A DNA stretch of 64,000 nt from Catajapyx aquilonaris (lineage: Eukaryota): positions 1-64,000 of the forward strand of contig KZ538585.1 of assembly GCA_000934665.2 (NCBI GenBank). Reading direction: 5' to 3'. This document shows positions 1,369 through 27,039 of the stretch, piece by piece. Each line of letters starts with the position of its first letter. Positions within the stretch are counted from its first letter, which is position 1. Under the pieces are notes generated by a model. That model ran no database searches. It was not told the DNA's origin and was given only the letters and a program-made list of their open reading frames with translations. The translations under genes and the position numbers were made by a program.

Positions 1369-1429
1369 GTGAGTTTGCGGATTTTTTCGCGCGATATTAG
1401 ACAGTTGCTTTTAGTGTGCCATCGTAAAT

Positions 1430-1810: not shown

Positions 1811-2604
1811 GCCGATATTAATAATTGGTTTGCGATTTTGAGTTGTTTTTTTTTGCAATAAGCTTATTACTCGATCAAGAACTGTCTATATCGCAGAAAC
1901 GAAAAATTGCACGACTTTGGTGCAACCTGACACATTGTTGCCATTGTGACGTCAGGAATATTTTCCGACTGTATGAAAATTTGCGAATATTTTCTGCAGC
2001 TTTTTTAAAAAAAAGTTTAGGAGTAATTAAGAAGCATCTTAGTGGCCCCAAACTGCTGTTAAAATATTAGTTGGCTTCACGCCCTGTCCATTCATTAAAC
2101 CCCGAATTGTTGTGGGTGTGAGCCTCTCTCTAATTGGTCCGCATGCTCTTGGAAGCCCATAGGTCCCCTTTCAAAAAGCGTCGATATTTTCACCACCACC
2201 ACACCCCAACCCTCCACACAAAAACCGCTTTTCTTTCTGGTAATTAGCGCGCCAAATCACACACCCTCTGAATGGAGGGGTTGGCCTCCCAACACTTTTT
2301 GTGCGTATATCCATGTTGTACAACAGTTTTGTTGCGCTAGCTGGAATTTTCCGGAGCCTAATTGGAATCCGGGTATACAGCCCAGGATGGAAAATATATA
2401 TATATATCAGCCGGCGTTTAAAAAGCGATAAGATACACACTGTATTGTAATATATGCTCTTGTTATTCTGGATCTGCGCAGTGTTTTTCTCCCCGTCTAC
2501 GAATCGAGTTTGAGAATCTACATACGGTTCGGAAAATATTGGCCAACATTTACGAGCACTGCTGTTGCTTACCCCCGAATACCAACTGATCAACTACAGA
2601 TTTT

Positions 2605-2880
2605 TTTTCATTAGCTCAACCGAGTGCGCAACACCATTCGCGCACGGTTGTCCTTATATCAATGATACCTAGTAAGCTCTCTATGTTGTTTATAAGCGAT
2701 GAACGTATTTCCAACGCTACGATTGGTGGTGGGCACAAATTGGCCAACGTTTGCGACGTTTTCAAGGTTCTGAACGAACTTCAATGCGAATTATTATTTG
2801 GCTCCTGGTGAGAACGTTGTTGTCAGAATGATGGAGCTGCGCGAATGTGGGTGCGCACTCGGTTGCGCTCGTCAAAAATC
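2605..2880. mobile_element. MITE family B, copy 1
   Basis: Imperfect TIRs CAACCGAGTGCGCAACACCATTCGCGCA / TGCGCGAATGTGGGTGCGCACTCGGTTG; internal TATTTCCAACGCTACG shared with the copies at 49720 and 63381. Confidence 0.75.
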
Positions 2881-2990
2881 ATACACAGAATTCACAATCC
2901 GTGACTCCACCCCGTAGGTTGGCCTAGGTGCTATTATAGCTTTCACTTTCCCAGAACAATTAGAGGGCAGTATAGCGTCCCGGTGGACTT

Positions 2991-3075
2991 TGTCCGCTCG
3001 GTGACTCATCACCAACGTGCATATAGTACAACTTCCCACATGAGAGTGGCAGTAGGGTGCAGAGGGAGAGCCTAT
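2991..3075. mobile_element. Fragment of dispersed repeat family C (Helitron-like), inverted relative to the 36733 copy
   Basis: TGTCCGCTCGGTGACTCATCA and TGAGAGTGGCAGTAGGGTGCAGAGGG are near reverse complements of segments in 36770-36850. Confidence 0.6.
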
Positions 3076-5984
3076 GTGCCAACTGGTAGTGGCCTATCGC
3101 ACTACGTCCAAGTTGGGGAGTGAGCCAAGCAGTGTTGCCAAAATTAGTGTTAGCTATAATAGTTCACAGGTTGCAGCTGGTTGCTGGGGTAAACTTTGCC
3201 GTCTCCGAAGGTACAGCATCCTTTTTACCCCCCCTGGATAATAAGTAAGACATCAGCTGTTTAAGTGACTGGACCAAATCCGGTTGGTCGTATTGGTTCT
3301 CGACCTTGAAGGGACAGGGTTGCCAACTTCGGAAAAATGGGTTACAAGGTCTGGTTGTACGTATTACACGTATTATGTTTAATATGTGTGTTGGTTGCAT
3401 TCCGATCCTACCACATGCCCGGACCCTCCAACCGGTTTCCTGTACCGTTACGCATTCCTCCTCCTGGATGAGCGGAGTAGTTGTCCAGATGCACGAGATG
3501 GCGCCTGCTGCACCTGTACAGTTGAGGGCATGCTTACTTGAGAAATTCAGTTAGCACCACCGAGCAGGAAGTGTGTAGCAGTGACCATGGGTTGAATAAC
3601 GGAGAGACGAAAATTCGATGTCCCACCAGTGGTCAAATCCAGCAAAATATTGTTCTCAAGTGAGCAGGCCTTCTAGTATAGAACGTGTGTCGACCTTGAA
3701 CTGATGTTTATCCTGACTGTTCAGGGCAAGCCCGTCGAGCAGGGTTGCGCGCAAGTGAAGCCTGACACTCAGGATAAACCAGGCTCGGGTTGCCAATGAT
3801 AGGAAATTGAAGTAACTTTGGTGCTAGCAACGCTGCTGGCCACCCTCAGCAGCTGTGCCAATCGCATCCGAAAATGTTTGAGATTCCCCCAATAATAAAA
3901 GCGCATTTTGAATTCGAGTGTGTCGTGCGTGTGATGTGGATCGTGTCGCCATAAATGTAATGACCCACCTTCCAAAATAGAGAGGGGTCGTTGCGCCCTC
4001 AGGAGGAGGCCCATAATTTGGCAACCTTTTTCACCACTGGTCTAGCTGTGACATAGGCACAGATTTTGGCCGATTTTTCCCCCCCCCTGACCTCCCCTTT
4101 TCCCACAAAAAATCTGGCCTGGTTCCACCTGCATGAGCATTTTCTGGCAACTTGGCCCACCCACCCCCCACTTTTCAATGCAAGTTTTCTGCTCCGATGG
4201 GTTTCCCTGCGTGGCCATCAAGAATTAGCATGTGAAGAGACAATCACTCTCTCTCTCTCATTATGCTCTCCTCTCAAATCCATCCAATAGCCGCACCCGA
4301 GGGTTCATTTATGGGGCCTAATATGCCAATGGTGTTATGTCTGATGAGGACTTGTAAAAGAGAAAATAGAAAAAAAATGTTAATATCGAGATAAATACGG
4401 TATTGAAGATAAAAATGAAGTCTACAATTAAATACGTATAAAATAAATGGAACAAAATACTTTTATACAATATAATTAATATGTAAAATGTAACATAAAT
4501 AAATTGTATGAAATATAATCTAGTTGCTTTCTGAAAAATTAAATTTAATATAATGGTGGTCTATAAAAATAAATTAATATACAAAATATAATAATAAATT
4601 AATACGGTATATAATATAAATTTAAAATGCAGCGAATAACTACATTAATATGTAAACAAGAATATAAAATAAATATAGCCTATATTATTATTTTATATTC
4701 TTCGATTGTATATTATTTATTTATTTTAAATCAATCATATGCAAATACATAAAATCAATATACGCGTGAAATTAATTAAATATAAAATAAATGTAAAATA
4801 AATTACATAAGTGAAAACCAAGAAACAAACAAAGCTTCACTCAATCCTTGCAATGAAAGTGATGGTACAATGTTACGTGATGTTTTACTAGTACAGTAAC
4901 AATTACGCAATCATTGAAGTGTTACTAATATTAGTAAATAAAAAAAGCAAACAAAGTAAACAAAGAATTGAAATCAAAATAAACGAAATATAAACACGAA
5001 ATAAAGCAAGTTAAAGGCCCGGTCATCCTGGGTCCGCTTGTCCACTGGATTTATTACCATTATAAAGAGGTACGTGACAAAGTCGGAAGGGCGTCCAACC
5101 TCAGCCGAAATAATGTTGCGACTTCCGGTGGTGTGCGTGAGGGGACAGTGACCAGGTTTGGCGACAGATTGGCGCGAATTGCGTCATGTCAACGAACCGA
5201 CATGACAGCGCCATTTTGCATCATTTTATTGTTGTTGTTGTTCTCTATCCTTGCGTGCATAGATTGCTCGAACGGTGCGCATGGTTACACCGCAATGTGG
5301 TTGGAGGGAAGGTCAGGCAGCATGTCAACGAACGACCTCCAACACTCCGGACAACCTTGGGACCAAGCATTTTTGCGGGATTGTTGCATAAATTTGGCAG
5401 CAGTGTTGGGAGGGCATAACTCGAGCAGCGGTCCCAACTCTGACCTACTTGATTGCCTCCAGGGGGAGGGGGACTATGGGGCTACAGAGAGGGGGGGGGG
5501 GGGGGACTATGCTTTGCTTCCTCCCCAGCCCCCCTCCTCGACCACCCCAACGATAGACGAGTCTATGGGAGGGCCAGCCAGTCGGCGAGCCTTCTTTTTA
5601 ACCCGATCGATCACACACACCTCCAAAATAATTCAGGCCCCCCTTACACCTCAAATAACGCTTCAAAAATATATATAATTAGTTTGAAATTTTTGAACAC
5701 ACCAGGTGTAACACCAAGAATATTAAAACGCTCCCAAAAATGAAGGGCTCGGGTGAAAAACACGTTAACCGCCACTGCCAATTGAAATTATCACATACAG
5801 TATTTAATATTGCTAATCCTATAGTTATAGTATATTAAAACGCCTGCGCCATGCCGTGCCACTATATGATTTAGGAGTGAAGCAGCGTGCGCCACCTACT
5901 GATTTCCTTTCATAAGCTGTTAGCTGATGACTATAGTTTAGACCTAATTAGCGTAGGTTAGGAAACAGGTTGCCTTATAAACCA

Positions 5985-6032
5985 AATCTGGACAAGCAAG
6001 CAAACAAACAAATCTTGCCATTTATAGTAGAT
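5985..6032 (-). mobile_element. Helitron-like 5' end fragment
   Basis: Minus strand reads ATCTACTATAAATGGCAAGATTTGTTTGTTTG..TGTCCAGATTTG, matching the copy at 22997. Confidence 0.5.
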
Positions 6033-6037
6033 TAATT

Positions 6038-6478
6038 TAGGGTGAAGTGGGGGAAGTGCACACCCGGGGTAAGTGCACATATTGTGCCGCCATATTGGAA
6101 TGAAAATTATGAGAAATTATGAGAATTATTATAAAAATATGAAGAATATGAAGTATGATTGCAAGATAATATACAGTTTGAAACAATATGAAAATAATAT
6201 AGGGTGAAGTGGGGGAAGTGCACACCCGGGGTAAGTGCACATATTGTGCCGCCATATTGGAACCAAAACGCGTCAGCTATGTAGCTGCACAGTGCAGCTA
6301 CATAGCTGACGCGTTTTGGTGTCGTCAACCATTTTCATTCCAATATGGCGGCACAATATGTGCTCTTACCCCGGGTGTGCACTTCCCCCACTTCGCCCTA
6401 TATTATTTTCATATTGTTTCAAACTGTATATTATCTTGCAATCATGCTTCATATTTTTCATATTTTTATAATAATTCT
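6038..6478. mobile_element. Rearranged MITE forming a ~360-bp foldback with an extra direct TIR copy (A-B-A-C-C'-A'-B')
   Basis: Block TAGGGTGAAGTGGGGGAAGTGCACACCCGGGGTAAG... lies at 6038 and 6200 and inverted at ~6330-6400. Perfect 29-bp arms surround 6291. The AT-rich block 6121-6199 is inverted at 6401-6478. Confidence 0.85.
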
Positions 6479-7839
6479 CTCACACACACAGTCTATTATT
6501 TTACATTCGTATTTTCCATCATGCATACTGTCTTGTAGTGTATATTATTTTGTATCCATATTGTATTATTTGAGCATAGTCATGTGCAATGTGAGTCATC
6601 GAGAGTGTTCTAAGGAAGAATATTATTTTTATAAGTTTGGTTGGGGAATATTACGGTATATCTACACATTTTTTTATTTAAAACAATTCAGTTGGCATTT
6701 TGAGCGACTTGTGGATATCGGGGGAGTGCCAGAGATTGGCAGGCCTGCTCCGTGCGTGTTGCGAAAATTTAACCAATGGAAGGGGCGGGAATTCCTGGCA
6801 GCACCTATTAGGACAGAGTGAATTACGCCCTCAACTGATGGAACATTGTCAAGTCCGGAGAGGCATACCAACAGAAATTTCGGGAGGAAATTTTGAATCG
6901 TATATTTTGGTATTGCGCTTTCACAGAGCTAGAGTTATCGCGAGTTGAGCGAGAATAATTAGGCTGGATTTGGCTGATAATGCGACCAATATGCTAGATC
7001 TGGTAAGAAGTCCTTTTGAGCTGTACGTAAGAATCGAGTTCATTTTTTTTGTGGTGTATCTGGAGTGCACTCTCGCCCCTAGCAACCCCCAAATAACCCC
7101 CTAGCAAACACACTCCTAGCTGGGACTTTTCGCCAGAGAAACTCGAGCCTGATCCTAATGGGGCGGGTCAAACTACCCTGATGGGGGGGGATTTATTTGC
7201 ACGGGAGGAACCTCTTAAGTGCGCGTCATGATTGCGATTATTTCAGCGACAAGATCTGATATATGCGATGCGCATGTTTCGCAATATTGGCTAATCCAAG
7301 TGCACCGGGAAGTGCAATGCATATATGCATCAAACCGGTCTAGGAAGTAAGTTACGCGCGTGGCTTGCGTAAACCGGTCATGTGTCTAACATGAGATGCA
7401 TCATTGCAGCATCCCCCTCCCGATGCAATGCAAAAAAAAAGCAAGATGCAACCCCCCCTTCCATCAGCAATGAGAGGGCTATTCCCAGAGAGAGGGAGAG
7501 GCGTATATAGAGTTGAGAGCGTGGGTTGTTGGAAGTGGGTGGGTGGGATGGCGGTGGTGGGGGACCTCTCTGGCGGTCAATGCCTCTCTCGCAGGGGCCC
7601 CTAAACTCCAACTGGGTCACTAGAAGCACCGGCTCCAGCGACTCCCTCGGACACAATCCAAACCACTTCCAACAACACTGCTGAGCCTGCATCACTCTCT
7701 CACGGCACAGCACGTGTGTGTCTCTCTGCAACATGTTACAAAATCATATTCCGTACCAGTTGTAGTTGGCTACTGTTGGGCCACTATTAATTAACCTGCT
7801 TCATTCCAGGACATCACTGTCAAAAAAATAAATAATAAC

Positions 7840-8819
7840 ACCAATTAGTAACGGTTGCTAATAGCAACTGTCTAAAATAGCAGTTATTAGTAACTGTTTT
7901 ACTCGTTAGTTTTAGAACAGTTGTTAGTAGCCTAGCTGTTACCAATCACAGTTATTTTTATATTGAAGAAGCAACTGGTTTAGCGAGTCGCTGTAATTTT
8001 AAGACACCGGCGATTATTTACTGTTTTGCTCAGTGACATTTTTAAAACAGTTGCTAGTAGATGTTACAAATCAGTTATTTTCATATTTAAAAAAGTAACT
8101 GCCCTAGTCGCTGTTATTTTAAGACAGCAGCGATTATCTACTGTTGTATTCAGCGTTATTCTTAAAACAGTTGCTAGTAGCTGTTACAAATCACTGTTAT
8201 TTTTATATTTAAAAAGTAACTGCTCTAGTCTCTGTTATTTCAAGACAGCAGCGATTATTAACTTGTTTTGCTCAATGTTATTTTAAAATAGTTAGTAACT
8301 GCTACCAATCATTTAATTGGAGTAGAAACTGCTATTGTCGCTTTTTTACGACAACGGCGATTAGTAACTGTTACTAATAACTGCTTTTGAATAGCTGTTA
8401 ATAGTAACAGCTTTTCTCGTTGTTGTTTTAAAAGTAGTAGTTAGTAACTGCTACCAATCACTGTTATTTTCAAATTTGAGTAGTAAGCAACTGCTACAAA
8501 TAACTGATTTTGAATAGCAGTTATTGCTGGTAGTAATTTTTTACTCGCTGGAAAATAGTAATATTAGTAACTGCTATCAATCGCATTTTCAAAATTAGAA
8601 GTAGTAACTGCTCTAGTCACTATTGTTTTAAGATAACAGCAATTGGTAACTGCTGCTAAGAACTTATTTTTTTAAAAATATCAGTTTTAACTGTTGTACT
8701 CGCTGTTATTTTTTAAATCGGTAATTAGTAACTGGTACCAAGTAGGCCTACTGTTATTTCAAACTAGCCATTATTAGTTAAATGCGTATATTCGCTGTTG
8801 TTTTAAAATAGCGGTAATT

Positions 8820-8879
<60 letters not shown>

Positions 8880-8960
8880 AACTGCAACTACTGCTAACCA
8901 TTATTTTTGAAAGAGCCGTTAGTAACTGCTACTATTGACTGCTATTGTAACAGTAGCCGG
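7840..8960. repeat. Degenerate AT-rich minisatellite (AGTAACTGCT/CGCTGTTATTTT), containing (TAC)n at 8820-8879
   Basis: Repeated motifs, with a higher-order ~120-bp duplication around 7980-8290. Confidence 0.75.
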
Positions 8961-11569
8961 AAAAAGCAGCTTTTATTCTGATATTTTGTTTGGCCATAAC
9001 CTCTTGGATGTTTTAAGATCACGGCTCCAGGCCCCAGATGCAAAGTTGCGGTAGATCACCTGTGTAGCCAGCATGGGGTATTTTTTTGGCAAGGTGTTTT
9101 TTATCCGGGAAGTATAAAATGGGGCCAAAGTGGTCGCCTTTTTGTGTACAGAGCAGCAGCACCGGTGAGGAGTGTTGCACCTTGGCCCAAAGTTGGGAGC
9201 TTGGTTTATTCTTACTTTGCAAGAGCGTTGTTCACATGAACACGACGTGTGTGTGTGTGTGCCTAGTTGCTTCCAAAATACCCTTAAACTCCCGCTGGGG
9301 CATACGAAAAACTAGGTCAGGCACCCAGACCAAGTGTGTGTGTGTGTCTCTATAGTCAGAATTGCATGCCCATGCACATCCTCAGACCTGCCAACTCATG
9401 GTCATTAACCGACCGCTTTCTAAGATTAGATTAGGCAATTATGACATCAGACACTATGCGCTCCGGAACCTCATTTTTTCTTCTCATGTCGTACTGTGTG
9501 GCTGATAAACACGTGTGTTAGAATCAAACGATTAGTACAGCTACCAATCATCACTGCTACTCTAAAAATAGCAGGGGCCAAAAAAAGCTGTACTTGCAAA
9601 ATTCATATGTGGCCGTGATAGAATCCCTCTGTACTGTATTGCATTGACCTGATAAACAATGGTCGCTGCGATTAATAAGCTAAAAATAACCGCGACTAGT
9701 AGCTGCTAATAATAACCGCTACTTTAAAATAGCAGGGCCAGAAAAAGCTGCATTTGGAAAACTCATCAGCTAGGACCGCTGCTGGGCTCATTTTGACCCG
9801 ATTTTTTACAATTTTTTAAAAGTGCATAATAGCATTGAGGTGATGGCCGATTGTTTCTCCGCTTAGATCTGGCCTAGAGCCTATCCCTGATGAAGTACCA
9901 AGCGATGCTGTTGGTTCGGCCTTGTGTTATCTGGGTCATTGGCTTCACGGCAATTAGCTCCGCGCTTTTTTTTTCACACTTCACTTCTTGTCTGATGCTT
10001 TTTTTGAAGCTGAAGGGTAAGTAAAAGCATTTTTGCGGCAGGAAAAGGGGTCTCACGTGCGAGAAATTTCACAAAAAGTGTCGCGTTGAAGGACTTTTGT
10101 CACGAATCGACGGTAATACTCCCCAATTGTGGCGCTGATTGGTGCAACCCAATTGTCTATGAAATTTATTTATGAAAAAATTAAAGGTCGGTTAATTAGC
10201 GCAGTGAGGTTCCTTTAGTTAGTTGATCCAAGGTGTGGAGGTATAGAGTGTGGTAATGGCGTCTTCTGTTTGGGGATCATGCAATCCTTTTGGCCACTAA
10301 TCGAAACCAGTTATCAAACCTGGATTAAGGGTGTTTTGGGTGGGTGGGAGGGAGACCCCATAATCTGCCTGGTGGTGTGCGCATAGTTCGTTGAACTTTG
10401 GAATCTTTTCGAGGTGGTGTGGGAATAAACGATAGTGACACTTGCGCAACATCCATGCGCAACTCTCACTTTCTCTTTTCGCTAAAAAAAATGATTATAA
10501 AAAAAGTTGGTGTGAGAACCGTCAGATGCGGAAGTTAATTTTATGCCAGTTAATAATTGTCCTTGATATTAAGGGAGAGCATTTAGTGCCATGGAATTGA
10601 CACCAGATGGCAGCGCCCATCCTTGGCCACCTGTCGGCCAACCTCAGTGTCCTTAGCGACGCTTTTCGATTACTGTCCGACCCTGATCCTTTGTCCAGTC
10701 CCTGACCTCGCCCCTTCCCCGTTGAAGCAACTGACCTCCTTCGCATGTTCTATATATACACCCACGCAGAGTCTATTACGCACACACACATACACAACAT
10801 GACCCCACGCACCAACGACACGTGGCGCCGTGTGATTGGTTGGCCCTTGTTAGTAGAAGCGGAGATTGCTATCCACTAAACCTCTTCCAAACCATTTCGA
10901 AGTGGGTCAGGTCGCTGTCTCGACTTTTGCTACGGTTACAAGTATAACCCTCCTGGCAAACTGACAACATTTTTTTAAAAAAGAGGGAGGGAGTGACGTC
11001 ACAACTAGTACGAATCCAATATTAAACTCGGTTTCTTCGGTTGGGGGAAAAAATGGACAAAATTCGGTTCAAGCTGCACTGGCCGAAATTTTATTTGTCG
11101 ACTTGGCTGAAAGTCATTGCGTGACATAAGCTGATCGCATCAATCTTTTTGTCAGCTATAGTACTTTCTCTGAGGTAACTGCTACTTTTCCACTAGTCGG
11201 AAACACCCTCTATAGTGATATAGATGCTATTTTGTAAAACAATTAATTTGGAAAGGGTCATGCGTGCTGCAAGACCGCTCTTGCAATGACCCAGTTGCTT
11301 TCATAAAAGGTCGAAGCGAAGGCTCTTTCGGATTGACCTCCACCACGAGCACGTCTCGCGGGATATAGATAGCCACCAAAAGCCCCATTTGGCATCACCC
11401 AACGTCTTTTAGCTATTTCTTTTATAACCACTTATTCTTGGCCATATAGCCTTGCTCTTTAAATGCTGATTGCTAGAGCGAACAATTCGTTACGTCTTAT
11501 TCGCCTCTTTGGGACTGTCAGCAGCGTTTGTTCGAACTATATTGAGATGTCAATAATTTCACTCAGCAC

Positions 11570-12290
11570 CAAGCTGCTTAATTTTTAAGCAGTTGTTTTT
11601 CAACAGTTTCAACAGTTATTTTCGGCAGTTTTAACTAGTTATTTTTACTCTTTCAACCGTTATTTTCAATTATTTAACCAGCGATTTTAAACATTTAACC
11701 AGCAGTATGTTCACTAATGGCTTTAGCAGTTAATTATTTTAACCAGTGATTTTAAACATTTAACCAGTTATTTTTTGACATTTAACCTGATATTTTCCAC
11801 CGTTCGCAGTAGCTATACAGCAATATTTGCAATGCCTTTACAGTTACGTAATTTTAACCAGTGGTTTTCAACCGTTTGAAGCAGCTATACAGGGTGGTCC
11901 AAGTTCAAGTGTCGTTTTATAACGGCGATTAATAGCAGTGATTTTGCGATGACGTAGCAGCGACGCGTAAGTGGGCAATTTTACACGTCGCTGCTACGTC
12001 ATCGTTAAGCGCTTCTATTAATCGCCGTTATAAAACGCCACCTGAACTTGGACCACCCTGTATTTGCAAATGACTCTTAATTATAACCAGTTACATTTCG
12101 ACATTTTAACCAGCTGTTTCCTATATACGTTTTCAGACTTATTTTCAATGACTTTGGCAGTATATGTTACCTGTTACTTTTAACAGGTTTAGGCGGTTAC
12201 CTTTAACAGGGTTATTTTCGACTGCTTATAGCCGGTTATTTCAACAACTGTTTTTGAGCAGTTATTTTTCCAACAGCGACTTTCAGGCGA
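11570..12290. repeat. Degenerate minisatellite (TTTAACCAGTTATTTT) interrupted by a MITE
   Basis: Recurrent TTTAACCAG(T/C) words on both sides of 11890-12060. Confidence 0.7.
11890..12060. mobile_element. Tc1/mariner-type palindromic MITE, 171 bp
   Basis: TA-CAGGGTGGTCCAAGTTCA...TGAACTTGGACCACCCTG-TA; nearly fully self-complementary; TA target duplication. Confidence 0.88.
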
Positions 12291-12601
12291 GCTATCAGAG
12301 CAATGCCGTATTAGGTTGAGTTTGAATTGCGCAGTGTGACTTTATTTCGACCCGAATACTGCATTTGGTCCGGGTAAAAAATAAAAACAACACGTGACCG
12401 TATGTGTCTAGGTGCTGCCGGTGTTAAACTTAGAATCTTGAACCGAGTCGGACCAAAAATGGACGCAACGCCAAGCCTCTCGAAGGGTCACCAGACTGGG
12501 CTGGAAGGGGGGGAATTGACACACTTCGAGTGAGCCACGCATACGTCTATATACCCCTCTTTTGGGACACTTTTATTTTTCGACTCTTTGCCCGTCCTTA
12601 T

Positions 12602-12633
<32 letters not shown>

Positions 12634-13239
12634 CTTTTGGGCTAATTTAAGGCCCCTTAGGACAGATGCATCAAAAGAGTGGAAAAGGGGACTCGTTACA
12701 CACTGCCAGAGGGTGGGAGGGAGGGCTCCTTAACCCCAATTTGCATGTTTGAAGTCTCAAGCGGCAATGAATGTTCCTCTCTCTCTCTCTCTAAAGCCGG
12801 TGCCAGTGTAATTCAGCTCTGCCTCATCTCTTATAATAATATGATGAGGATTGCTACGAGCTGCTGCAAGTCTCATTACCTTCATGTTGGCACCCCTTCT
12901 GGGCATCACATGCATGAATCATGCAACGATGCACTCAACTCAAGCAGATCATTCATTCATTCATTGTTGTATGCATATTATTTATTTTATATACGACTGT
13001 ATATTTTATTTATTCACTATAGTTGCTTACCGTTCTTCGCTGTGGCAACAATGTTGCCATGCACATCCCGTTGCTATTGGACACCCATTGCTATATGAAA
13101 GAGTATATAGGGCGGTAGAGGGGAAGGGAAATGGGACATGCCGTGACAAACTTTGCCTTTTATATAAGATTCGATTCAATTTTCTTTTATTTATTATGCA
13201 GTATATTATCATGTTTCAATGATTTGTTAACAACGTGCA

Positions 13240-13277
13240 CTTAATTAATCGCCTTATTTTCTTCCTTTCAGGTGAGT
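13240..13277 (+). other. Recursive splice site (ratchet point) RP1, junction 13271/13272
   Basis: CTTAATTAAT (branch-like), CCTTATTTTCTTCCTTT, then CAG|GTGAGT. Confidence 0.72.
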
Positions 13278-13348
13278 ATAATTATCTGGACGTCCTGTTT
13301 TGAGTTGATTGGTGATCGTGATGCCCTCGTGATGGATTGGTGGAAGTG
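13272..13348 (+). other. Cryptic RS-exon (77 nt) downstream of RP1
   Basis: A second consensus donor, TG|GTGAGT, lies at 13349. Confidence 0.55.
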
Positions 13349-14689
13349 GTGAGTGGCAGACGCTTTTCGGTTGACCCCGTTCTGCTGTCTGGAAGTCTCG
13401 GTGCAACTAAAAAGAAGATATTTTTTTTTTTAAATTGTGCTATGGTGTAATTATGACTGGATAATTTTTGCGAACTGTGATTCCGGCGTCACTGCAGCTA
13501 CGACTTTTTTTATTTAAAAAAAGCAAAAGACGACAACCGCCCGTGTGAATGTCATTCGCAAATTTGCATTTCCTCGGTGACAAAGCCACCATGAAATCAT
13601 CATCGTGCTTAAAAAATAACAATAATCGGCAGATAAAAATAATGTTGATGGCCTCTAGCTTGAGCCGCCCTTGACACTGTTTGCTATTTGCTGCACATCT
13701 GACCTCGGTTTGCGAAGAGTTAACCGGCCACTAACATTCTCTCACTTTGAACAAACGGCGATAACCGGAATTTTTTCGAGCCACTATTTTTAGCGAGCAA
13801 AATTCTTGCAAATTTTTTTTCCTCCGCGTACTTTTTCGGCATTTTCTGGCTCTCAAAAAATTTCGTGGGGGGGGAGTTGTTTTGGCGCCTTACCCTGAAC
13901 CCGATCTTGTGGAGACTTTTGTTGTGAGAGGAACATGAGACCCAAGTTTGTGCCAAAGAATGCGCCGTGTCGACAATCAAGGAAATGATGATGATGAAGG
14001 TCGCACGTCCCATAAGCATGAATCAGCTCCGGGGTTGAACTTAGGGTTCAACGATTGATAAGCAATCGGAATAAGAGTCGCATAACTATAATTTGTAGGA
14101 TATCTCTCTTGTTGACGCGGTGTTGTCCAGGTCTTTTCCGGAATAGTTAATCTGGGGTGATAAGGCGTGGCGTGACCGCGGTAGTACCACATCCCTCGCA
14201 TAGATGCTGCTACTCTCAGGGTACAGTGCTGGACATTAAAATGGTGTTGTACTGGTGGCGCCGGCAGCCGATCGCGGCAAAAATAGCGAATTCATGAAAA
14301 GTTGCCTCCGTATGACTCGATCGAAATGTAGGTTCGCTCTTTTGCCGATTTCGGCTCGTGGCGCCGTACGACACCATTAATGTCCAGCACTGTACTACAG
14401 TTCTGACAAAGTACAGTGGGTCAGCTGTAATTGAGTTGAGGGGGGACAAGAAGTACCTCCCCATCTTTGGACCCCTTGCAAAGTCTCCAGCTGTGTGTAT
14501 AGTGTTGGTGGTGGTGGTGGGGGAGGTCAACGTCCGTGGCTTTGGCAACTCCACTTCCGCATGGAGCAGCCGCCGATCGAAACTAGTGGTGCCGACGCCG
14601 ACGACGCCGGCTCCAAAACATGCCTCCAAAACCGGAAGCGCCCTTCTTTTTTCCTGGCCGAAAAAAAATCAAAGCCTTCTTATACTTAC

Positions 14690-14890
14690 CCCCCACCGAA
14701 AAATATAAAATAATAAAAAAATGGGAATCGACCAATATGGCTTGGCAGTGTCGAAATATGATGATTGTGCAACTTGGAGAGGGGGGGGTGGAAAAAGCGT
14801 CGGAGTGAACTTGGCGCGATGGGGACTTGCGATCGGTTGGGGTGCGAGGTCAGTGCTCCTGGAGCAGCTGACCTAGTTACTTTATACCCC
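14690..14890 (-). promoter_or_regulatory. Candidate antisense TATA promoter with an ATG-free first exon (~14856 to 14690)
   Basis: Minus strand: GGGGTATAAA (14890-14881), adjacent AACTAGGTCA (14878-14869) and donor G|GTAAGT (14689-14684). Confidence 0.35.
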
Positions 14891-15049
14891 TCTCTCGGAA
14901 GAACGGGGAAGGAAAGTTGAATGGGCGAAAGTTTTCATGCTGGAGATGAGCCGATAACAAAAAAGCTGTTCCGCACACTCTGCCATTTTTTTTATTTAGC
15001 ATTCGGGAAGGGGCGGCTGTCACTAAATACAGCAACGTCACACACACGC

Positions 15050-15585
15050 TTATTTTAACCTGCTACTCTTAGCCGTTATTAACATACCTGCTCATTTTAA
15101 ACAGCTACTTCAGCTATTATTAGCATGCCTGTTTATTTTAACCAGTTACTCTCAGCTGTTATTATAATGTACTTGTTTGTTTTAATCAGCTACTTTTAGC
15201 TGTTATCAACATCGACGTTTATTTTAACCAGTTACTCTCAGCTGTTATTGTTTACTTTAATCAGCTGCTTTTAGCTGTTATCAACATGCACGTTTATTCT
15301 GACTCGTTAGTCTTAGCCGTTAATAACATTGCTGCATAATTTAACCAGCTGTATGCAGCTGTTATTAACACGAACGTACCTGTTTATTTTAACAAGTTAC
15401 TCGTGTTATCAACGTGCCTGCTTATTTTAACCGGCTGCTTTTAGTTGTCATTAACATTTTAATCGGTGGTTACGTTTAACTGTTATTAACCTACCTGCTT
15501 ATTTTAATGGGCTACTTTTAGTTGTTATTAACAGAAGTACTTATTTTAACCAGTTATACGTTTAGCTGTTGTTAAAGTAGCTGTT
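15050..15585. repeat. Degenerate ~43-bp tandem repeat, about 12 units
   Basis: Unit approximately TTATTTTAACCAGCTACTTTTAGCTGTTATTAACATGCCTGC. Confidence 0.8.
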
Positions 15586-16866
15586 AGTGTCACGCCAGGC
15601 ACTTTTTGGATCCAAAATGGCGGGCGGCCGTGTCCGGTTGAATGTACCCTGCCGCACATGAGTTGGAAATGGGTGTGATGAATGTGACATTCTCCGAGTG
15701 CATGTGCGGTTGAGGGAGGGTAGTAGTAGGGGGGACATGATCCGGAAAAAAGTCATGAAGGAAGGAAGGGAGCGAAAGGGAAAGCGTGGAAAGTAGGCCA
15801 TGCTGCTGCAGAGAGGACAGCATGTGTAGTGAGGCAGGCAGGGCCCGTTTCGGACTCGCCTCCATGACTACTATACCACAACTACATTTCCCTTGCCCCT
15901 CCGACACCCCCCGCACATGCATGGATTACCAACCTTCTCTGGCCATTAATCATTTGGACTCTAAATGTTTCTTCTTTTTTTTTCTTTCCTTCCCAATTTT
16001 TTTTTTTCCTCCTCCACCATTTTTGTAACGGGAGGCGCTCTCACCAGACTTATTGTTGGTAGAGGTCACTTCGTGTCGTGCGGTTCTTGCGGTTCTTCTG
16101 AGGATTTCAATTTTTCGAGTTTTGGAAGCTGGAGAATCCGGTTTCTTCTGGAAGAGAGAGTGGGAGGGTGGGGAATCAGAATAAATTTGGCCGAATTTTG
16201 TATGTCACGTGCCACGTGCTATGCATGGTTGCAAGGTTAGCCCGAATTTCGCAAAATCAGTTCGTTGGTGGTATAATAAAAATGATCGTATTCCTGCCAA
16301 AATTTGCATCAAATGGTTGTCATACGCGTAATGATGATGAATATCATGCGACCATATGGCCAGTAATCAGGGCCTTGAACTATACACTTCAAGCGAGCTA
16401 CACTCGTTAGCGCAGTTTTATTGGACTTACACTTTCACCACATGATGAGAACGGGACTTGGGCATTATGTTGGCGACCGGGCAGTTGTAAACAGGAAAAA
16501 GGAGACAACTAAAAATGAGCGTGTACTCCATAAGTATGTATATCTCTGTACCCTGTACGTGCGATTGTGCCAGGAAACGCTGACCTCAATAGACTTGGCC
16601 CGAGTCTGCCAATTCGCTCCTGACATCTTGCGGTCACGATTTTTTCTCTCTCGCCAAGTTCTTTTTACCTGCCGCCGAAGCCGTGACACCAATACAACCG
16701 GGGCCGCCCTTGGGGCCGCCCTCTTCTTTTATATACTTTTCACGATAGGCAATAGGAGCGGCCTTGTAGGGGTCTCTAGTGACTCTCAGAGGTTGGATTA
16801 TACCCCATGAAGGCGAGATTTAATCCCAGCGTTTCCTCCCAGTATAATTCGCCATTAGCCACTTCA

Positions 16867-16952
16867 CAGGGTGGTACACCCACCAAGTACACAAGTAACA
16901 TCACGCTTTATACTGTACATTGGAGTGTGTGCTTGGTCAGTGAGCCACCCTG
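16867..16952. mobile_element. Tiny CAGGGTG...CACCCTG mariner-like MITE remnant
   Basis: CAGGGTGG...CCACCCTG-TA with imperfect inner arms (ACCAAGTACAC/GTGTGCTTGGT). Confidence 0.55.
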
Positions 16953-17262
16953 TACACCTCTTGTCCTGCCGTGAACCTGCGACCTTGCCAGGTTACGCCG
17001 TTTTCTTACGACAGTTGAAAGAGTGGAAGGAAAGGAAGGAAGCTATATAATGGATGGGCAACTTGCGTTACAGTAGGGGAGGCAGTGGGAGGTGAAAGGT
17101 CATTGGCGAGTGTGACCCACTTCTCGAGGGGGCTTAGGGGGGTCGGTAATGAACTTCGGTGTCACTCGCGGCTGGCTGGTCAGGATCGCCAGGCTGGAGA
17201 GTCACCAACATGTGCTCCTTGAAGGCTTCTGCTGAAGGTGAGCCACAACACTTCCTCGCTTG

Positions 17263-17796
17263 TGTATTGGCAGCCCTGAATGGTCAGGACCAATCAGAGC
17301 CCAGGGAACGATGGCTGCGACCAATAGGAGGAAATAATGAGCCGGTTAACTCGCACATGCGCAATCGCGGAAATGAGTAAGGTAGCACACATGAACTCAA
17401 ATTTGCCTCCGAGAGAGAGAATCCCTCCGTGTGACCGCCTTCACTTGTATTGGCAGCCCTGAATGGAATCAGAGGCACCTGCGACCAATAGGAGGAAAGG
17501 AGCCTAATGCGCATGCGCATGTTAACTCGCACGTGCGCAGTTGCGGAAGGGAAGGTGGTCACTCGAAGGGAGTGTCTCTTGGGAGGCTAATTTGAGCTTC
17601 AGGTCTGCTACCTTACTCATTTCCGCGAGTTAACCGGCGCATGCGTATTAGGCTAATTTCCTTCTATTCCCCTGCCTCTGATTGGTCCTGCTGACCATTC
17701 AGGGCTGCCAATACAAGTGAAGGTGGTCACTCTCGGAGGGATTCCCTCTCGGAGCCTAATTTGCTCTTCAGGTCTGCTACCTTACTCATTTCCGCG
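17263..17796. repeat. Composite repeat: about 1.5 forward and 1.5 inverted copies of a ~180-bp unit
   Basis: TGTATTGGCAGCCCTGAATGG lies at 17263 and 17446 and inverted near 17695-17715. GAAGGTGGTCACTC...CTTACTCATTTCCGCG lies at 17551 and 17719. Confidence 0.85.
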
Positions 17797-19119
17797 CCAG
17801 TACCGTGTGGTTCGTAACTATCTGTTCATATCGGAATGTCTCGGACACTGTTGTTACTTTTTTTATTATTTTGAAGGCAGTTGTACAGAATGTAATCCCA
17901 ATGCACGTCGGAAGGTCTGGCACTTGCCCTGGATTCTCTCACCTTATCATATCGGCCTGGAGGCCAGGTGGAGGGGGAGGGGGGGGGGGTTGTGTTGAAT
18001 GTGCAAAATGTAGGCAAGGCAGACTGGGTGTGGGGGAGGGGGAGAATCTGCAGGAAATTATACGTTGGAAAGACCCCCGGGTTGGTTTCGCAAGAGGCGG
18101 CAGATGTTGGGCGAACAACCTCATTATCTTTTGGGGTCAGCTTCTTTTACCCACCTGTTGGCACCACTGGGGCCCGCTTCCCTGATGACGTAATGGTTCA
18201 AGACGATGTTGATTGATTGACAGCTGTGTTCAATCAGTGCCGGGTGAAAGGTGTGTTGCGAAAAAATAATAATAACGCGAGAAACCAGTCCTAATAATTG
18301 GCATTCATTAATGGTTCCGTCTAATAAGACAGTTGCGTAATTCCGGGCCAGTAAACGAGGCTCCCGGTTGTCAAACCTGTCGTCCTTGGTTAGATATCGC
18401 TTGGTTTTTTTTTGCATGCGAATTGCATTATGCGGACAACTAACCCGACCGAGTCTGAGGTCAAGAGTGAGGCGGTCACACAGGGATGATTTTTAGAGAG
18501 AGAAAAAAAAATTTGCGTGGGAAATGGTAGCACCTGAGTGGAATTCAGAACGAGTTTTTTGTTTGCATGGATTGTGCTGAAAAAAATATAATTGGCGGTA
18601 AAAAAAAATTGTGAAGCGAGGAAATAATGCGTGTATAGATAAAAAAAAGCGACATGTACACATCCATTTGACCCACTTTCTATACTTGTCCACTCGCGAG
18701 TTGCAGTGCATATTTTTAATCGGAGCAAACGTGGCTTGTCCATTGCGAATTTATTGCAATAAGTACATTTTGCAAAAACGCACTTCATTATTTTTTTTTA
18801 AGAAACGTAAATCCACATCGCATATTATTACTATAGTTTCAACTGAAATGCCCGTTTCAGTCGCAGATTCTTCAAATTAATAACTTGCTGACATATTTTT
18901 CAGAATTAATGGCTTACGTACTTTGATAACCATTTAAACTTCTTCATAATAAGTAGCTTAAGTACCTTGATATGACGTCATATATCTGTGTTCCTATTGG
19001 AAATATTAATGGTTCGCTATTTTCGGCATGTATAGCTTCTTATTTTAAGCAGTCACTTTTCACAATATTAATATTCAACCATACATAAATCACCGCTAAT
19101 TGATATTTATTTATAGTTA

Positions 19120-19480
19120 TATTATGTTATAACAGCAATGGTTATTATAGTTAAATTCATAGTTTTGATAGTTATATCCATAGTTTTGATAGTTATATTC
19201 TTCGTTATTACATTAATAGCTTTATTAGCAATAGTTATAATAATTATAATAATGGTTATTACATTAATAGTTATTGCATGAATAGTCTTATTGATAAAAG
19301 TTTTATTAATAATAGTTATTACATTAATCGTTTTGTTAGTAATAGATATTACATTAATAGGTTTATTTTGGTACAGTAATAGATATTACATTAATAGGGT
19401 TATTTTGGTACAGTAATAGTTATAATCACTACTAGTTATAATGGTTATTCCATTGTTTTATTGGTAATAGTTGTAATTAG
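19120..19480. repeat. AT-rich low-complexity array (TAATAGTTATTACAT) with a 37-bp near-exact duplication
   Basis: AATAGATATTACATTAATAGG(T/G)TTATTTTGGTACAGT occurs twice at 19341-19414. Confidence 0.75.
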
Positions 19481-20774
19481 CTTCTTAGTATTAATCCGAA
19501 TTGAATTATCTGTTCGGGCTCTAAATTACCAATTTTCTATCAATGCGCATCGATCATTAATGATCGAACCTATTTTTAGCAACTTGAAAAAGGATAGGTC
19601 CACAAAACTTAATATAAACAGCTGTTATTTTTAGTATAACGAAAAGTAACTGCTTAAAAATAAGGCGAGCCGAAAATCTCTGTATGAATTTCGATCCGGA
19701 CAATTTGAAACGTGTCTGCCACAATATTAGCAACTTGATGTCGAAATTTTTGCAGTAATTTCAGTCTGAACAATGGCGGAGAAAGGTGTTTTTTTGCACC
19801 CTGGACGAACTGAATATCGACGTTGCCAGATTGCATCACCGGTCTTGAAGTGTCAAGTGAAGGAGAAAATTCGCCAAAAACCTCCCTTCGATTTCAGCGA
19901 CCAGAGTATTGGCGAGGACAAGTTCTCGATACTCGCTCAATTGTGGAAAAAAAAACTTCCCAAAAATAAGAAAAAAAATTTCACGACTCGGATTTTAGCC
20001 GCGAATAAGTGTCTCAATTATTCGGCCAATGCCTGCGGTTTTATTACCTTGCCGAAATAATTGCGCAATAATTTTTTGCGATACAGGGCTAGTTTTACAA
20101 AACAGCTAACTGTTAGATAAATGCGTAAACGAAGACTGTTGGTTAGAATGCGGCGTTTCCAGATTCATCCCCTACTAATTAATCGCTTTAATTGTTGGGG
20201 TAATTGGGCGTAAGTGTGGCAACGCACTGGTGCAATGAGAGTGGGGGGAGGGGGTTATAGTGAATGATTTTTTTTGCGTACTCCGCATGTTTCCAGCAGA
20301 GTGCCATAGGTCATGTCGAGACAGCTGGAGAGATCAATGGGAGGTTTGTGTGTGCGTAGGCATGGCAACAGCGCCGAATTGCGCAAACTGGGAAGCGGCG
20401 CATGCACGACACAAGAATTTTTTGCACTGCGCACCGCCAATTTTGCACGCACTGCATATAAAAAAAAAATATTCGCCATGGTACAAACGACGTGACCTGC
20501 CTCATGTATACTGGAAATGACAAACTTAATTTTTGTGCAAGAGTAAGTTTTTGCGATTTTTTTTTGGGGGGGGGGGGGCTTGCCACATTTGGCAACGCAC
20601 GATCTGGCCAAAAGCACTTTCTCTCCATGACCATTGCCATTTTGCCCGCATTCATCCGACGGCACGACCCGTGTCAAAGGTCACGTCGTGATCTGGGCGT
20701 GATGCGACATTTATTTACGTGCCCTGTAACTGTATAACCGGTAAATAATTCTTACTAACTGTTATAATTTATTT

Positions 20775-21020
20775 ACTAGCAGCAGATCCCGTTCTTCGTA
20801 CGGCCAAATTGTGCAAAATGGGTATGAAATAGCAAATATAGGTATGAAATGGACAAACTTTGCACATATTGTACAAGTACTAATTACTGTACAAAATTAG
20901 CTGGGCCCGATCCCGGACTGTCCACGTAGTACCATATCCCTCACGTAGATGGTGCACACTTCTGCGTACACTACCTGTCCGAACAGACAGAGTCACAGAC
21001 CCAAGCCAATTCTATATTGT
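20775..21020 (-). mobile_element. Non-autonomous Helitron-like element (family C)
   Basis: Starts ACTAG plus a small CCGT..ACGG hairpin (a CTAG 3' end on the minus strand). Ends GACAGAGTCACAGACCCAAGCCAAT, similar to sequence near 36846 and 40428. Confidence 0.5.
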
Positions 21021-22361
21021 TATCTCATTATCTCGCAATCTTACAATTCTGGTACAAGGCAAAGTTTTTTAATTAATTATTTTAGTGGGATAAAATTTTT
21101 GTGTTGACACGCAATTAGGGAATGTGTGGGCTAATTCTTACACTCCCACACAATCTCGTGTGTTAGCCAGTTACGTCGTATGCATGTGAAGCACGTGTGT
21201 TACGCACTTTTCATGCACGGAATGTTTATTTACTGCACCGGTGAATAAAGTGAGAGTAAAGTGCAAAAATCGCCATAATGCAAAAATAGAATTAGCAATA
21301 GGTCGGAGTTATTTTCTGCACACGCCAAAAAAAAGGCAGGCGTCCAATCGTCAGGGTTCATTGTCCTGTGTCCAAAGCTTGACCCCATCGATGCCCAACA
21401 GGTGGAGGAGTCCCCCCCATTGTGTGCGTGACGCATTTTGCACACTTTCTATTATTCACTCTCTATACACCCGCACCATCGCTTCTATTTTTTCTCTCTC
21501 AAATTTTTTTTTCGGGTGCACCCCTGTCCACGTGGGACCCCCAAACGACCCACCCCACCCAAAAAAAAAGCAAGGACAAAAGAATACCAGGAATGACCAG
21601 GTGATTCATGAGGGTCGTGAATAATCGGACGACCAATAATTCGGATCAATATTGGAAGGTGGAGTGCTGCTGGGATGGCATTTTTTTCTGCCAAACTGAA
21701 CGTGACATAGTTGGCAACACTGCCTACAGTTCCATAGTTGGCAAAATTTAAGAGAACTCGCAAAAAAAAAAAAATTAGATGCTAACAGGATAGTTCAATT
21801 CGGCAGAAACAGCCTTGCTGTGTGTGTCGCCTATCGTGCAGGATGATCCCGATGAAGACTTACCATGCAGGCTGTTATTTACGTAATGAAGTCAAATTCG
21901 CCATTGGAAATTGATGGTATCGCCACGAGCCGATGGCAGCGAAAGAGCTAATAGAAGTTATGAATAATTGGCAATAATTCGATCTTTTGCCGCCAACGAC
22001 TCTCGACGCCACCAGTACAACACCAGCACTGTGCTATTGCATGGTGCAACATTTGTTAATCCAGGTTAACATAACTTAATTCCAGGATTGGCTGCGTTAT
22101 AGTGATGCGCAGTGGGTTGAGTCCCTTTTAGTGTCTCACCCTGTACTTGGCCCCAATATATGAACCCAGAAAAACCGATGTAAGGTCAAGAATAAACCTG
22201 TTAATCTTCTAATCCTAGCCTTGGTTATCAGTAGCGGATAACTGCTGGGGTTAGTGTTTAACTAGCGGGTTTTACAGAAATCCCGTTGCGCACACTTTGA
22301 CCCTCACTCGTTTGTAATCGTCGCAGCTGGATGGATGGATGGACGGATGGGAAGGGGGGGN

Positions 22362-22612
<251 letters not shown>

Positions 22613-22996
22613 GGGAAAAAATTGCAATGAAATGGTGCACAGAGTTATTATTATAATTTTTGTAGCGTGTGTGCCAATTTTGGAGCTGTTCAAAAAGGTG
22701 AATTTGGGCTGGAAGGGAAATGAAAGGGTTTATTATTTTATATGGAAGGGAGGTTTGCGACACAAAACATTTTTTACTGCGAAGGTTTCACACCTCACCC
22801 GGTCGCCATTTTCACGGACGGTGCTGTGTATAGTTGAAGCCTCAGTTACTTGAGAGGAATCGAGGGCCTGCAGTTCCAGTTGACATGACGTGTCAGTGTC
22901 AGCAATTTTTTTGCAACAAGTTCTTCACTACTAAATGTATTAAATAAATGAATGTATTAAATTTATATATTAAATATATAAATATATAAATAACTA

Positions 22997-23562: not shown

Positions 23563-23771
23563 NNNNNNNNNNNNNNNNNNNNNNNNNNNNNNNNNNNNNN
23601 NNNNNNNNNNNNNNNNNNNNNNNNNNNNNNNNNNNNNNNNNNNNNNNNNNNNNNNNNNNNNNNNNNNNNNNNNNNNNNNNNNNNNNNNNNNNNNNNNNNN
23701 NNNNNNNNNNNNNNNNNNNNNNNNNNNNNNNNNNNNNNNNNNNNNNNNNNNNNNNNNNNNNNNNNNNNNNN
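23563..23771. other. Assembly gap (209 N) flanked by poly-G
   Basis: Read directly. Confidence 0.99.
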
Positions 23772-24579: not shown

Positions 24580-25210
24580 CACTAAAATAACTACTGTAAG
24601 CGCAACTGTTCGAAAATAACCTGTTCGAAATAACTAGCGAAAGTGACTGGTTAAAAATAACTACTGGATATATCAGTTTAAAGCGACAACTGGAAATTTA
24701 ATATAAACTGTTTAGATAACTAATAAAACAATCCGTTTAGAATAGCTAGTGAAAATAAAAGGTTAAAAACAATACGTATAGATTAACTATAGGAAATAAT
24801 GTTTAAAATCCCTATTATAAACGCCATGTTTGCATAGCTATCGGAATTTACTGGTTTAAGTAACTATTGAAAATAATCCATTTAAAATAACAAGTGAAAA
24901 TAATCCATTTAAAATAGCAATTGAAAATAATCCATTTAAAATAACAATTGAAAATAATCCATTTAAAATAGCAATTGAAAATAATCAATTGAAAATAACA
25001 ATTGAAAATAATCCATTTAAAATAACTATTGGAAGTTGCTGACCAGTTTAAAACAACTAATGAAAATAATCCCTTTGAAATAACCATTACCAAAATAATA
25101 TAAACATGTTTGTATATAGCTATCGGAAGCAACTGGTTTAGTAACTATGAGAAATAATATGTTTAAAATAACTAGTGAAAATAACTGTTTTTTGCGCAGA
25201 CTGGTTGCTA
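24580..25210. repeat. AT-rich minisatellite with a homogeneous core of ~6 x 27 bp (24867-25030)
   Basis: Unit TTGAAAATAATCCATTTAAAATA(A/G)CAA; it explains the repetitive 'CYFKWIIFN' ORF. Confidence 0.9.
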
Positions 25211-27039
25211 TAAAATAGGAGCAACATAATTTTCTTAGCAGCCTCTTGGAATTTTTGGAGTGTGTATGAGTGTGCACCCACCCTTGTTGCAATGCACGAG
25301 CAACGTTAATAATTGCATTGTGCAATCATCAGGTATAGTGCCGACAGGCTATCCCACACCCCTTCTATAGATATGCGATCATAAAAAAGGAGGGGGGGGG
25401 GAGGGGAGCAGAATACAATGTTGCCATCAGTGGAGGTGTGTTGTTGAAGCTGGCAGCACGAGAGGCGTGAGAGCAATAAATTGATTACGAAACGAGCTAG
25501 GGCCTCGCTGGCGATAAAGGCCCCACCTCTGGCACATACACGGTTCGCCCAAATCAATTTATGGCCATCGGGACCTCGTTTGACCCACGCCCCACGTCAT
25601 GTCAACCCTAACATTTCGAAAATAAATTCGCGAATTATTTGAACTTGTGAAAATAATTCTTAGAATTATTATTGGAATGAGTCTGCTGTGCCTCTGTCCG
25701 GAGCGAGTCATCATCAGGCAATAGTGTGCGTCATCTATGTTAGGGATATGGTACTATGTGGGCAGTGTTGCCAACTAGTGTGCAATAAACTAAAATAATT
25801 TAAACTACCCCCCCAGCTGGCCCTTCCCCCAATAACGGGCAAAACTGGAGGGTTTTCCAAAGCCTAAATGGCGCGTATAAAATCTTTGCCGCTAAAAAGG
25901 GGGCTTGGCTTCTTCTTCTTGAAGGAAGAAGGTCAAAGACCTCCTTGGAATATAAATAAAAAAGGGAACTCTTGTTGGGGAGGGGGGGGGGGGGATTGAG
26001 TTTGTTTAGGGAACTGAAGACGGGCAGTAAAGATCGCCTGTCAGATACAAAGACGTCATTCTTGGTGCGAGTCTTTTTTCTCGCGTCGTTAGTATACCGT
26101 AACAACAGCGATGCGAGAGAAAAAAGGGGCTAAATTCCATTAGCAGCTGTGCTTTTCGACTCGTATAAATTTAGCAGCTACTTGATTAAGGCTGTTGTTC
26201 ATTTCAGCAGCGACATCGACATGCGAATGAAATATGCTAGAAACTAACAAAATGAATGCAAATAAATCGATGTAAAATTCAGGTACATAACATTACAGGT
26301 CGTTGCTTTTAATTTTATACCTATTTATACGCGCATTAAGGCTATGAATATGAAATTACGTAATCGATTAATTATTGTAGTAATACATCGACGAAGTTTT
26401 ATTCGAATAAAATAAAATGACACATGGTCGAGTGAAGCAAAATCGGACAAAATTAAAAATTAATTTAGGAACTTAGATGAACACGTAATAAATGAAATAT
26501 TCGCATAAATTGAAACCAGGAAATAATTTACAGGGCTTTTCAAAGGCTTATCATTTTAGAACACACAGGCTAACTATAATACACATTTCTTGTAGCTTTA
26601 ATAGTATAGGTGCTAATAATTCGTAGCTACAAATGGAAACCTGCTAATTAGAAAAACAGCTGTGCTTTATCGAGTGAAAAGACCTTGCGATCCGCTAGGA
26701 AGGCCTTGGGGGCCTAGAGGTATAGTGTGTACGTGCTGGCTGTATAGAGGAAGGGAGGTATTTGGGAGAGAAAGAATCGGGTTATATACTCGTCCTCTAT
26801 ACATTACTGCAATGTGCAGTGGTGGGGGCCGCATTCTTCCCCAATTTGGGCAGACCCGGGCCTTCTTCTTCTTCTCTCCTTATGCCCCCTCCCTCGCCCT
26901 TCCTTCCCCCTCCAGTATTTTTAGTGGCGATAAGCAAGTCGTTGACCCTTGGCGGCACACAGAAGGACGCTGAGGAGGGACTCACTCAACTCACGCAGCC
27001 TTGAATCAACCGCCATCATGCCATCATTCAACCTAATAC

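Follow-up and report, generated by a model that had tools for sequence, protein, structure and literature searches.

Does the abutment of a 3' splice site on a 5' splice site at 13271/13272 mark a point of recursive splicing within a long intron and, if so, what becomes of the short segment lying between this junction and a second GTGAGT further downstream? A preliminary description of the locus had read the region from 13240 to 13354 as a ratchet point of the Drosophila type, with a cryptic exon whose own donor competes with the one regenerated by splicing. We considered this proposal against the whole stretch of DNA analysed, a window of 64,000 nucleotides. The site, hereafter called RP1, is probably a recursive splice site on the plus strand of a long non-coding intron (probably more than 62 kb), and the 77-nt exon that it opens would mostly be removed. 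This reading was built from the DNA sequence, from which we infer that the plus strand is transcribed, which exon lies upstream, in what order splicing proceeds and how it ends. The features concerned are collected in Table 1.

Table 1. Features of the candidate recursive splicing locus; positions are those of the 64-kb window
Feature	Position	Strand	Characteristics
Putative non-coding first exon (exon 1)	1292-1368	+	77 nt; 3' end GCG; Inr-like hexamer TCAGTC at 1290-1295
Donor of putative exon 1	1369-1374	+	GCG/GTGAGTTT (GTGAGT); U1 duplex proxy -9.4 kcal/mol
RP1 branch motifs	13241-13249	+	Two overlapping TTAAT (YTRAY); branch A at 13244 (-28) and 13248 (-24)
RP1 polypyrimidine tract	13252-13268	+	18 of the 20 bases before CAG are pyrimidines; TT at -5/-6
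RP1, 3' splice site fused to 5' splice site	13269-13277	+	CAG/GTGAGT, junction 13271/13272; direct reading
Candidate cryptic RS-exon	13272-13348	+	77 nt, not a multiple of 3; ATGs at 13321 and 13332
Donor of candidate RS-exon	13349-13354	+	GTG/GTGAGTGG (GTGAGT preceded by TG); U1 duplex proxy -10.3 kcal/mol
RP2, second ratchet-point-like site	40817-40853	+	CTAAC and CGCAG/GTGAGT, junction 40847/40848; branch A at -28; 17 of 20 pyrimidines
First strong donor past RP2	41228-41233	+	GTG/GTAAGT, 380 nt downstream; U1 proxy -11.0 kcal/mol

The fused splice site and its departure from chance

The motifs of RP1 and their positions can be read directly, and at this level the layout proposed earlier is exact to the base: the branch motifs, the pyrimidine tract, the CAG/GTGAGT junction and the GTGAGT at 13349 all lie where they had been placed. 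Both overlapping copies of TTAAT are contained in CTTAATTAAT (13240-13249), and CCTTATTTTCTTCCTTT (13252-13268) leads into CAG (13269-13271) and GTGAGT (13272-13277). The element departs at no position from Y8NCAGGTRAGT, and its acceptor end reads TTTCAG. In its genomic context, CAG/GTGAGTAT is complementary to the 5' end of U1 at 10 of 11 positions, and a duplex proxy (-14.1 kcal/mol) ranks its U1 complementarity first among the 45 GTRAGT sites of the 64-kb window. RNA structure around the site is not above chance (z = +0.73). One of the DNA sequencing runs represents a second haplotype, with five substitutions and five indels within about 125 nt (13019-13143) just upstream of the RP1 region and zero variants listed from 13144 to 14204, RP1 included; this is a single comparison, too thin to mean constraint.

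Pairing of this extent would also suit an intronic docking element for the U1 snRNP with some other role, such as trans-splicing or the suppression of premature cleavage, and with no re-splicing. A precedent is found in mod(mdg4), where trans-splicing is promoted by a conserved intronic U1-binding motif (Gao 2015, in excerpt). Such an element would, however, leave the acceptor half of RP1 (branch motif, tract and TT at -5/-6) and the paired downstream donor unexplained, and we regard it as improbable in the extreme.

How often should a fusion of this kind arise by chance in 64 kb? The bare CAGGTRAGT 9-mer is not significant, being found twice in the window against 0.90 expected, with at least two occurrences in 25 of 100 shuffles. 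The composite motif, defined as YAG/GTRAGT behind at least 16 pyrimidines in 20 positions, is far above chance. In simulated 64-kb sequences (400 each at Markov orders 1, 3 and 5), its expected number per window, both strands together, is 0.0125, 0.015 and 0.0225, respectively; the number observed is two, both on the plus strand (13271 and 40847). At every Markov order, 0 of the 400 simulations held two or more composites on one strand, and none contained the complete arrangement, in which a branch motif precedes and a GTRAGT follows the composite. Acceptors with a strong pyrimidine tract and YAG are common by themselves (23 on the plus strand and 37 on the minus strand), and not one of the 37 minus-strand sites is followed by GTRAGT; the rare element is the consensus donor fused to such an acceptor. 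A looser scan of both strands of the window brought up no further convincing recursive site. As to donor-like strings in general, GTRAGT occurs 28 times on the plus and 17 times on the minus strand, and GGTRAGT 14 and 6 times, a mild excess on the presumed sense strand.

These figures bear on the possibility that RP1 is a chance or non-functional motif, situated in intergenic or antisense DNA and crossed by no plus-strand transcript. The window is without a recognisable gene and the promoter at 1292 is conjectural, both of which would be in keeping with such a reading. Yet about 0.02 composites are expected per window and two are present on one strand, both of them heading the 45 GTRAGT sites in U1 pairing (-14.1 kcal/mol for RP1 and -13.8 kcal/mol for the second site), and in flies the complementary strands or intergenic DNA have a background of about 0.1 per 100 kb (Shepard 2009, in excerpt). 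We consider a chance motif decidedly unlikely.

The second composite, RP2, does not follow the fly pattern as closely. The TT rule of flies is broken there, with T at -6 but C at -5. The core of the site, TCGCAGGT, occurs once in a table of 539 D. melanogaster sites, as a low-confidence entry. RP2 is also without a short RS-exon, the next strong donor lying only at +380; two reading frames are open over most of these 380 nt, without a Pfam match. Directly 5' of RP2 lies a promoter-like tandem duplication (about 145 bp, 40510-40770), each copy of which carries ATTGG, TTTGCGCGAC and GCGC(A/C)TGCGCAATGGGG; an internal promoter or enhancer is possible at this place. Because RP2 departs from the fly consensus and adjoins a promoter-like block, it supports RP1 less than the statistics alone suggest. 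Judged by its motifs, RP2 could be read as a ratchet point, as a recursive exon of larger size, or as the donor that ends an internal first exon.

One could envision that RP1, too, is a donor only, serving an internal promoter and a short first exon that ends in CAG/GTGAGT; the pyrimidine run would then be exonic, either as a TCT/TOP-like initiator or by chance. CAG/GTGAGT equals the plain donor consensus, RP1 is preceded at a distance of about 100 nt by a TATA-like string, TATATAAG (13163-13170), and the duplicated block with its ATTGG, TTTGCGCGAC and GCGCMTGCGCAATGGGG lies 80-330 nt before RP2. A first exon, however, has no need of the branch motif that both sites display at -28 (TTAAT in one, CTAAC in the other). 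Moreover, both CAGGTRAGT sites of the window (2 of 2) are preceded by at least 17 pyrimidines in 20, whereas the requirement for pyrimidines makes such sites about 40 to 70 times rarer in expectation, and the TATA-like string at 13163-13170 has no Inr suitably spaced from it. A donor-only role for RP1 is thus very unlikely in our estimate.

The 77-nt segment and the possible choice between two donors

If RP1 is a recursive splice site, an upstream exon must be joined to it. The motifs that had been singled out for such an exon read as previously stated, with TCAGTC at 1290-1295 and GCG/GTGAGT with its GT at 1369. TCAGTY is common on both strands of the window (29 copies on the plus strand, 37 on the minus strand), and the Inr-like hexamer at 1290 therefore argues only weakly for exon 1. 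The identity of this exon is a guess made from sequence, and the promoter at 1292 a conjecture. The sole ATG in the putative exon (1336-1338) is followed by GGT CCG TAG, and its frame is closed after three codons.

Further downstream, the segment of 77 nt with two ATGs noticed in the preliminary description is present, its length following from the positions of the donors at 13272 and 13349. The first ATG (13321-13323) begins the short frame ATG CCC TCG TGA, and the frame of the second (13332-13334) meets no stop codon in the remainder of the segment. Of 1000 random positions, 3.7% have a donor of at least the strength of that at 13349 in the interval from +30 to +150.

With these elements the following sequence of events can be proposed. 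The pyrimidine tract and the TTAAT branch site of RP1 would recruit U2AF and U2, and the GTGAGT at 13349 would delimit the 77-nt cryptic exon through exon definition. The upstream exon, putatively 1292-1368, would then be joined to 13272 with the removal of 11.9 kb. The resulting junction, GCG/GTGAGTAT, would constitute a new donor, slightly better than GTG/GTGAGTGG. Were this new donor used next, the 77 nt would leave with the following intron segment and be absent from the mRNA. At the similar site at 40847/40848, 27.6 kb downstream, the same step would take place again.

The relative strength of the two donors was gauged with a U1 duplex proxy, a crude measure given in kcal/mol. The regenerated donor, GCG/GTGAGTAT, scores -11.3 against -10.3 kcal/mol for the RS-exon donor, a comparison that presumes the unverified GCG end of exon 1 and changes if the real upstream exon ends differently. 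Since the donors are only 1 kcal/mol apart in so crude a proxy, skipping of the 77 nt is not assured.

It is worth considering, then, that 13272-13348 might be an expressed exon, that is, an alternative or constitutive 5' UTR cassette present in a substantial share of the mRNA, with or without re-splicing at 13272. Such an exon would be compatible with two GTGAGT donors separated by so little in the U1 proxy and with the lack of a stop codon in the frame of the second ATG over the rest of the 77 nt. There are known cases as well (Ubx m1, msi, heph, ps, sm and mub), and inclusion is poorly predicted by donor strength (Joseph 2021, in excerpt). However, fewer than 50 expressed RS-exons are set against more than 500 silent ratchet points in Drosophila (Joseph 2021, in excerpt), and a conventional exon opening with GTRAGT by chance is improbable (2 in 4096). 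An expressed exon at RP1 is in our view unlikely.

The preliminary description had gone further and proposed that donor choice decides whether the 77 nt enter the 5' UTR. The near-equal GTGAGT donors would then make this a regulated recursive exon, entering the 5' UTR according to tissue or splicing factor. Both the 5' UTR placement and the deciding role of donor choice are things that we infer, because exon 1 rests on an Inr-like hexamer that is common in the window. As silent ratchet points far outnumber expressed RS-exons in Drosophila, a regulated inclusion switch is the less likely outcome, and we hold it to be unlikely. The earlier reading remains preferable to the alternatives, with support for its sequence half (motifs, positions and departure from chance); given fewer than 50 expressed against more than 500 silent cases, the regulated switch is less likely than a recursive site whose exon is mostly removed.

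The surrounding DNA

The window is plausibly a non-coding stretch of more than 62 kb, interspersed with short repeats and with no recognisable gene. Among the ORFs scanned, none reached the cut-off of any Pfam family, whether in the 46 taken from the 125 of at least 90 aa on both strands or in the 259 of 329 plus-strand ORFs of at least 45 aa (those with starts at or beyond 13751, up to the window end); an intron longer than 62 kb is therefore plausible. Two matches stayed below threshold: Tmp39, with 19 bits where 28 are required, and DUF6470, with 21.5 where 28.9 are required; the DUF6470 match falls within a tandem repeat. An ORF of 231 aa at 4983-5678 was judged non-coding: other plus-strand frames are partly open over the same region (92 aa at 5141-5419 and 96 aa at 5453-5743), and it includes a G run of about 17 bases. 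The only Rfam match in the window is a borderline one to tRNA at 42019-42096 on the minus strand (30.3 bits against a gathering score of 29); ARAGORN called no tRNA at these positions, and a tRNA-derived repeat or a chance match is possible. Strand asymmetry of base composition is too weak for use.

Repeats are frequent in the window. A miniature inverted-repeat element of about 177 bp occupies 11886-12062; its terminal inverted repeats start with CAGGGTGGTCC, and TA is found on both flanks. In the DNA runs, word depth over this element reaches about 300,000, compared with about 35 in single-copy sequence, which implies thousands of copies per genome. Its terminal 25-mer has 0 exact matches in metagenome contigs, and a search of the literature for the terminal sequence returned unrelated papers only. 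Further high-copy repeats, with depths in the thousands in the DNA runs, lie at 2334-3667, 6024-6479 and 17008-17674; the repeat at 6024-6479 includes a hairpin with 148-nt arms (6121-6268 and 6332-6479) that are 96% complementary. Degenerate tandem arrays with units of about 27 to 135 nt are scattered throughout the window (1400-1600, 7860-8960, 15040-15560, 24710-25220, 51100-51620, 56360-58550 and 60140-60380), with TTTTAACCAGTTAC and AAAAGTAACTGCTTAAAA as common words. There are also long C/G homopolymer runs (1103-1119, 5490-5510), a (GA)n stretch of about 260 nt (22361-22620) and a gap of 209 N between G runs (23563-23771); together these look like the marks of a draft assembly with gaps at low-complexity sequence. 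Sequencing runs were compared over 1000-20999, where X1 and X4 consist of DNA contigs and X5 is of unspecified kind. Matches of X5 in this interval are repeats, plus one contig of 249 nt at 16080-16328. In none of the three runs does a joint touch 1368, 13272 or 13349, although stretches that they leave uncovered speak neither for nor against splicing.

Relation to known recursive splice sites

How well does RP1 agree with the ratchet points of flies? In Drosophila, TT occupies -5/-6 in 196 of 197 ratchet points, branch points lie between -36 and -21, and the segments removed measure 2.6-63.6 kb (Duff preprint); the introns concerned are longer than about 11 kb and carry the site on their sense strand. 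RP1 has TT at -5/-6, its splice sites are juxtaposed in the form (Y)nNCAG/GTRAGT, and a downstream donor at 77 nt would close a short candidate RS-exon. The motif-predicted branch adenines at -28 and -24 fall inside the range for flies, and the segments of 11.9 kb (from the putative donor at 1369) and 27.6 kb (from RP1 to RP2) both lie within 2.6-63.6 kb. The cryptic RS-exon is described as about 50 nt, of variable length, and its closing donor as weaker in most cases than the regenerated donor (Joseph 2021, in excerpt). The difference between the two donors of RP1 has the direction reported for most ratchet points, the regenerated donor being slightly stronger, with a small margin in a crude proxy. 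The claim that this is the architecture of a Drosophila ratchet point is thus borne out as far as the sequence criteria of these studies go (Duff preprint; Joseph 2021, in excerpt; Pai 2018).

A table of 539 candidate sites from D. melanogaster S2 cells (Pai 2018) holds 61 entries with TTTCAGGT, 48 with CAGGTGAGT and 7 with TTTCAGGTGAGT, and by these frequencies RP1 represents a mainstream form. A search of the same table for cores established no orthologous site active in S2 cells. The nearest entry, FBgn0259481, was weighed as a candidate ortholog and rejected, its identity from -10 to +6 being at about chance level among the 7 entries with TTTCAGGTGAGT. In an exact scan of metagenome contigs, the RP1 22-mer gave 0 matches. 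Conservation of the SA/SD core is a hallmark of the ratchet-point class.

The density of sites is informative as to the kind of DNA in which RP1 resides. Recursive sites are found in 63-70% of fly introns longer than 40 kb, and their proposed role is to break up introns of great length into manageable portions, with a gain in splicing accuracy (Pai 2018). Fly introns above 50 kb have 2.2 such sites per 100 kb versus 0.1 on the complementary strands; introns of mosquito, bee, beetle and sea urchin are likewise enriched, and long introns of vertebrates show little enrichment over complementary strands, with ratios of 0.9-1.5 (Shepard 2009, in excerpt, including Table 2). Here, two sites in 62.6 kb amount to 3.2 per 100 kb. 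Two on the plus strand and none on the minus strand fits the sense strand of a long invertebrate intron. To call the gene "insect-like" would be to draw on the Inr-type hexamer and the recursive-site density only, and the criteria applied are derived from flies and may not transfer to the host species.

The closest likeness is to the intronic ratchet points of Drosophila (Burnette 2005; Duff 2015; Joseph 2018, 2021; Pai 2018). The two share the branch motif, the T-rich tract with TT at -5/-6 and CAG/GTGAGT, a donor a short way downstream and, going by the crude proxy and the putative end of exon 1, a regenerated donor at least as strong as that of the RS-exon; RP1 would also be set some 12 kb deep in a non-coding stretch of great length, with a further site beyond. 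They differ in that the RS-exon measures 77 nt here against the roughly 50 nt quoted for flies, in the near equality of the donors at RP1, and in that our site is known from its sequence. The expressed recursive exons of Ubx (mI and mII), msi, heph and ps likewise open with a donor, and their inclusion is settled by the choice between two donors; in contrast to the candidate described here, which has 77 nt, not a multiple of three, those exons have been seen in mRNA and often preserve the frame, as with the 51 nt of Ubx (Duff preprint; Joseph 2021, in excerpt). The RS-exons of vertebrates share exon definition followed by competition between the reconstituted donor and that of the RS-exon (Sibley 2015 and Blazquez 2018, as summarised in Joseph 2021 and Pai 2018), whereas the density found here, with two sites on the plus strand and none on the minus strand, is invertebrate-like. 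The closest single precedent is the ratchet point of Bx, because its RS-exon sits in the 5' UTR; loss of a ratchet-point donor can force the cryptic exon into the mRNA (Joseph 2021, in excerpt).

What would these assignments mean for the gene? Should the unlikely case of regulated inclusion turn out to be true, a uORF of three codons would be added to the 5' UTR, together with a second ATG whose frame continues into the following exon. Translation of a developmental gene would then be turned on or off by recursive splicing, possibly in an insect outside the drosophilids, in which the process is not known from experiment. If, on the other hand, RP1 is the largely silent recursive splice site that we favour, the call would establish on which strand an unannotated long intron lies and how far it extends, and flag two positions at which mutations could disturb expression. 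RP1, and perhaps RP2 with it, would be one or two additions to a class that has hundreds of members, among them a near parallel in the 5' UTR of Bx.
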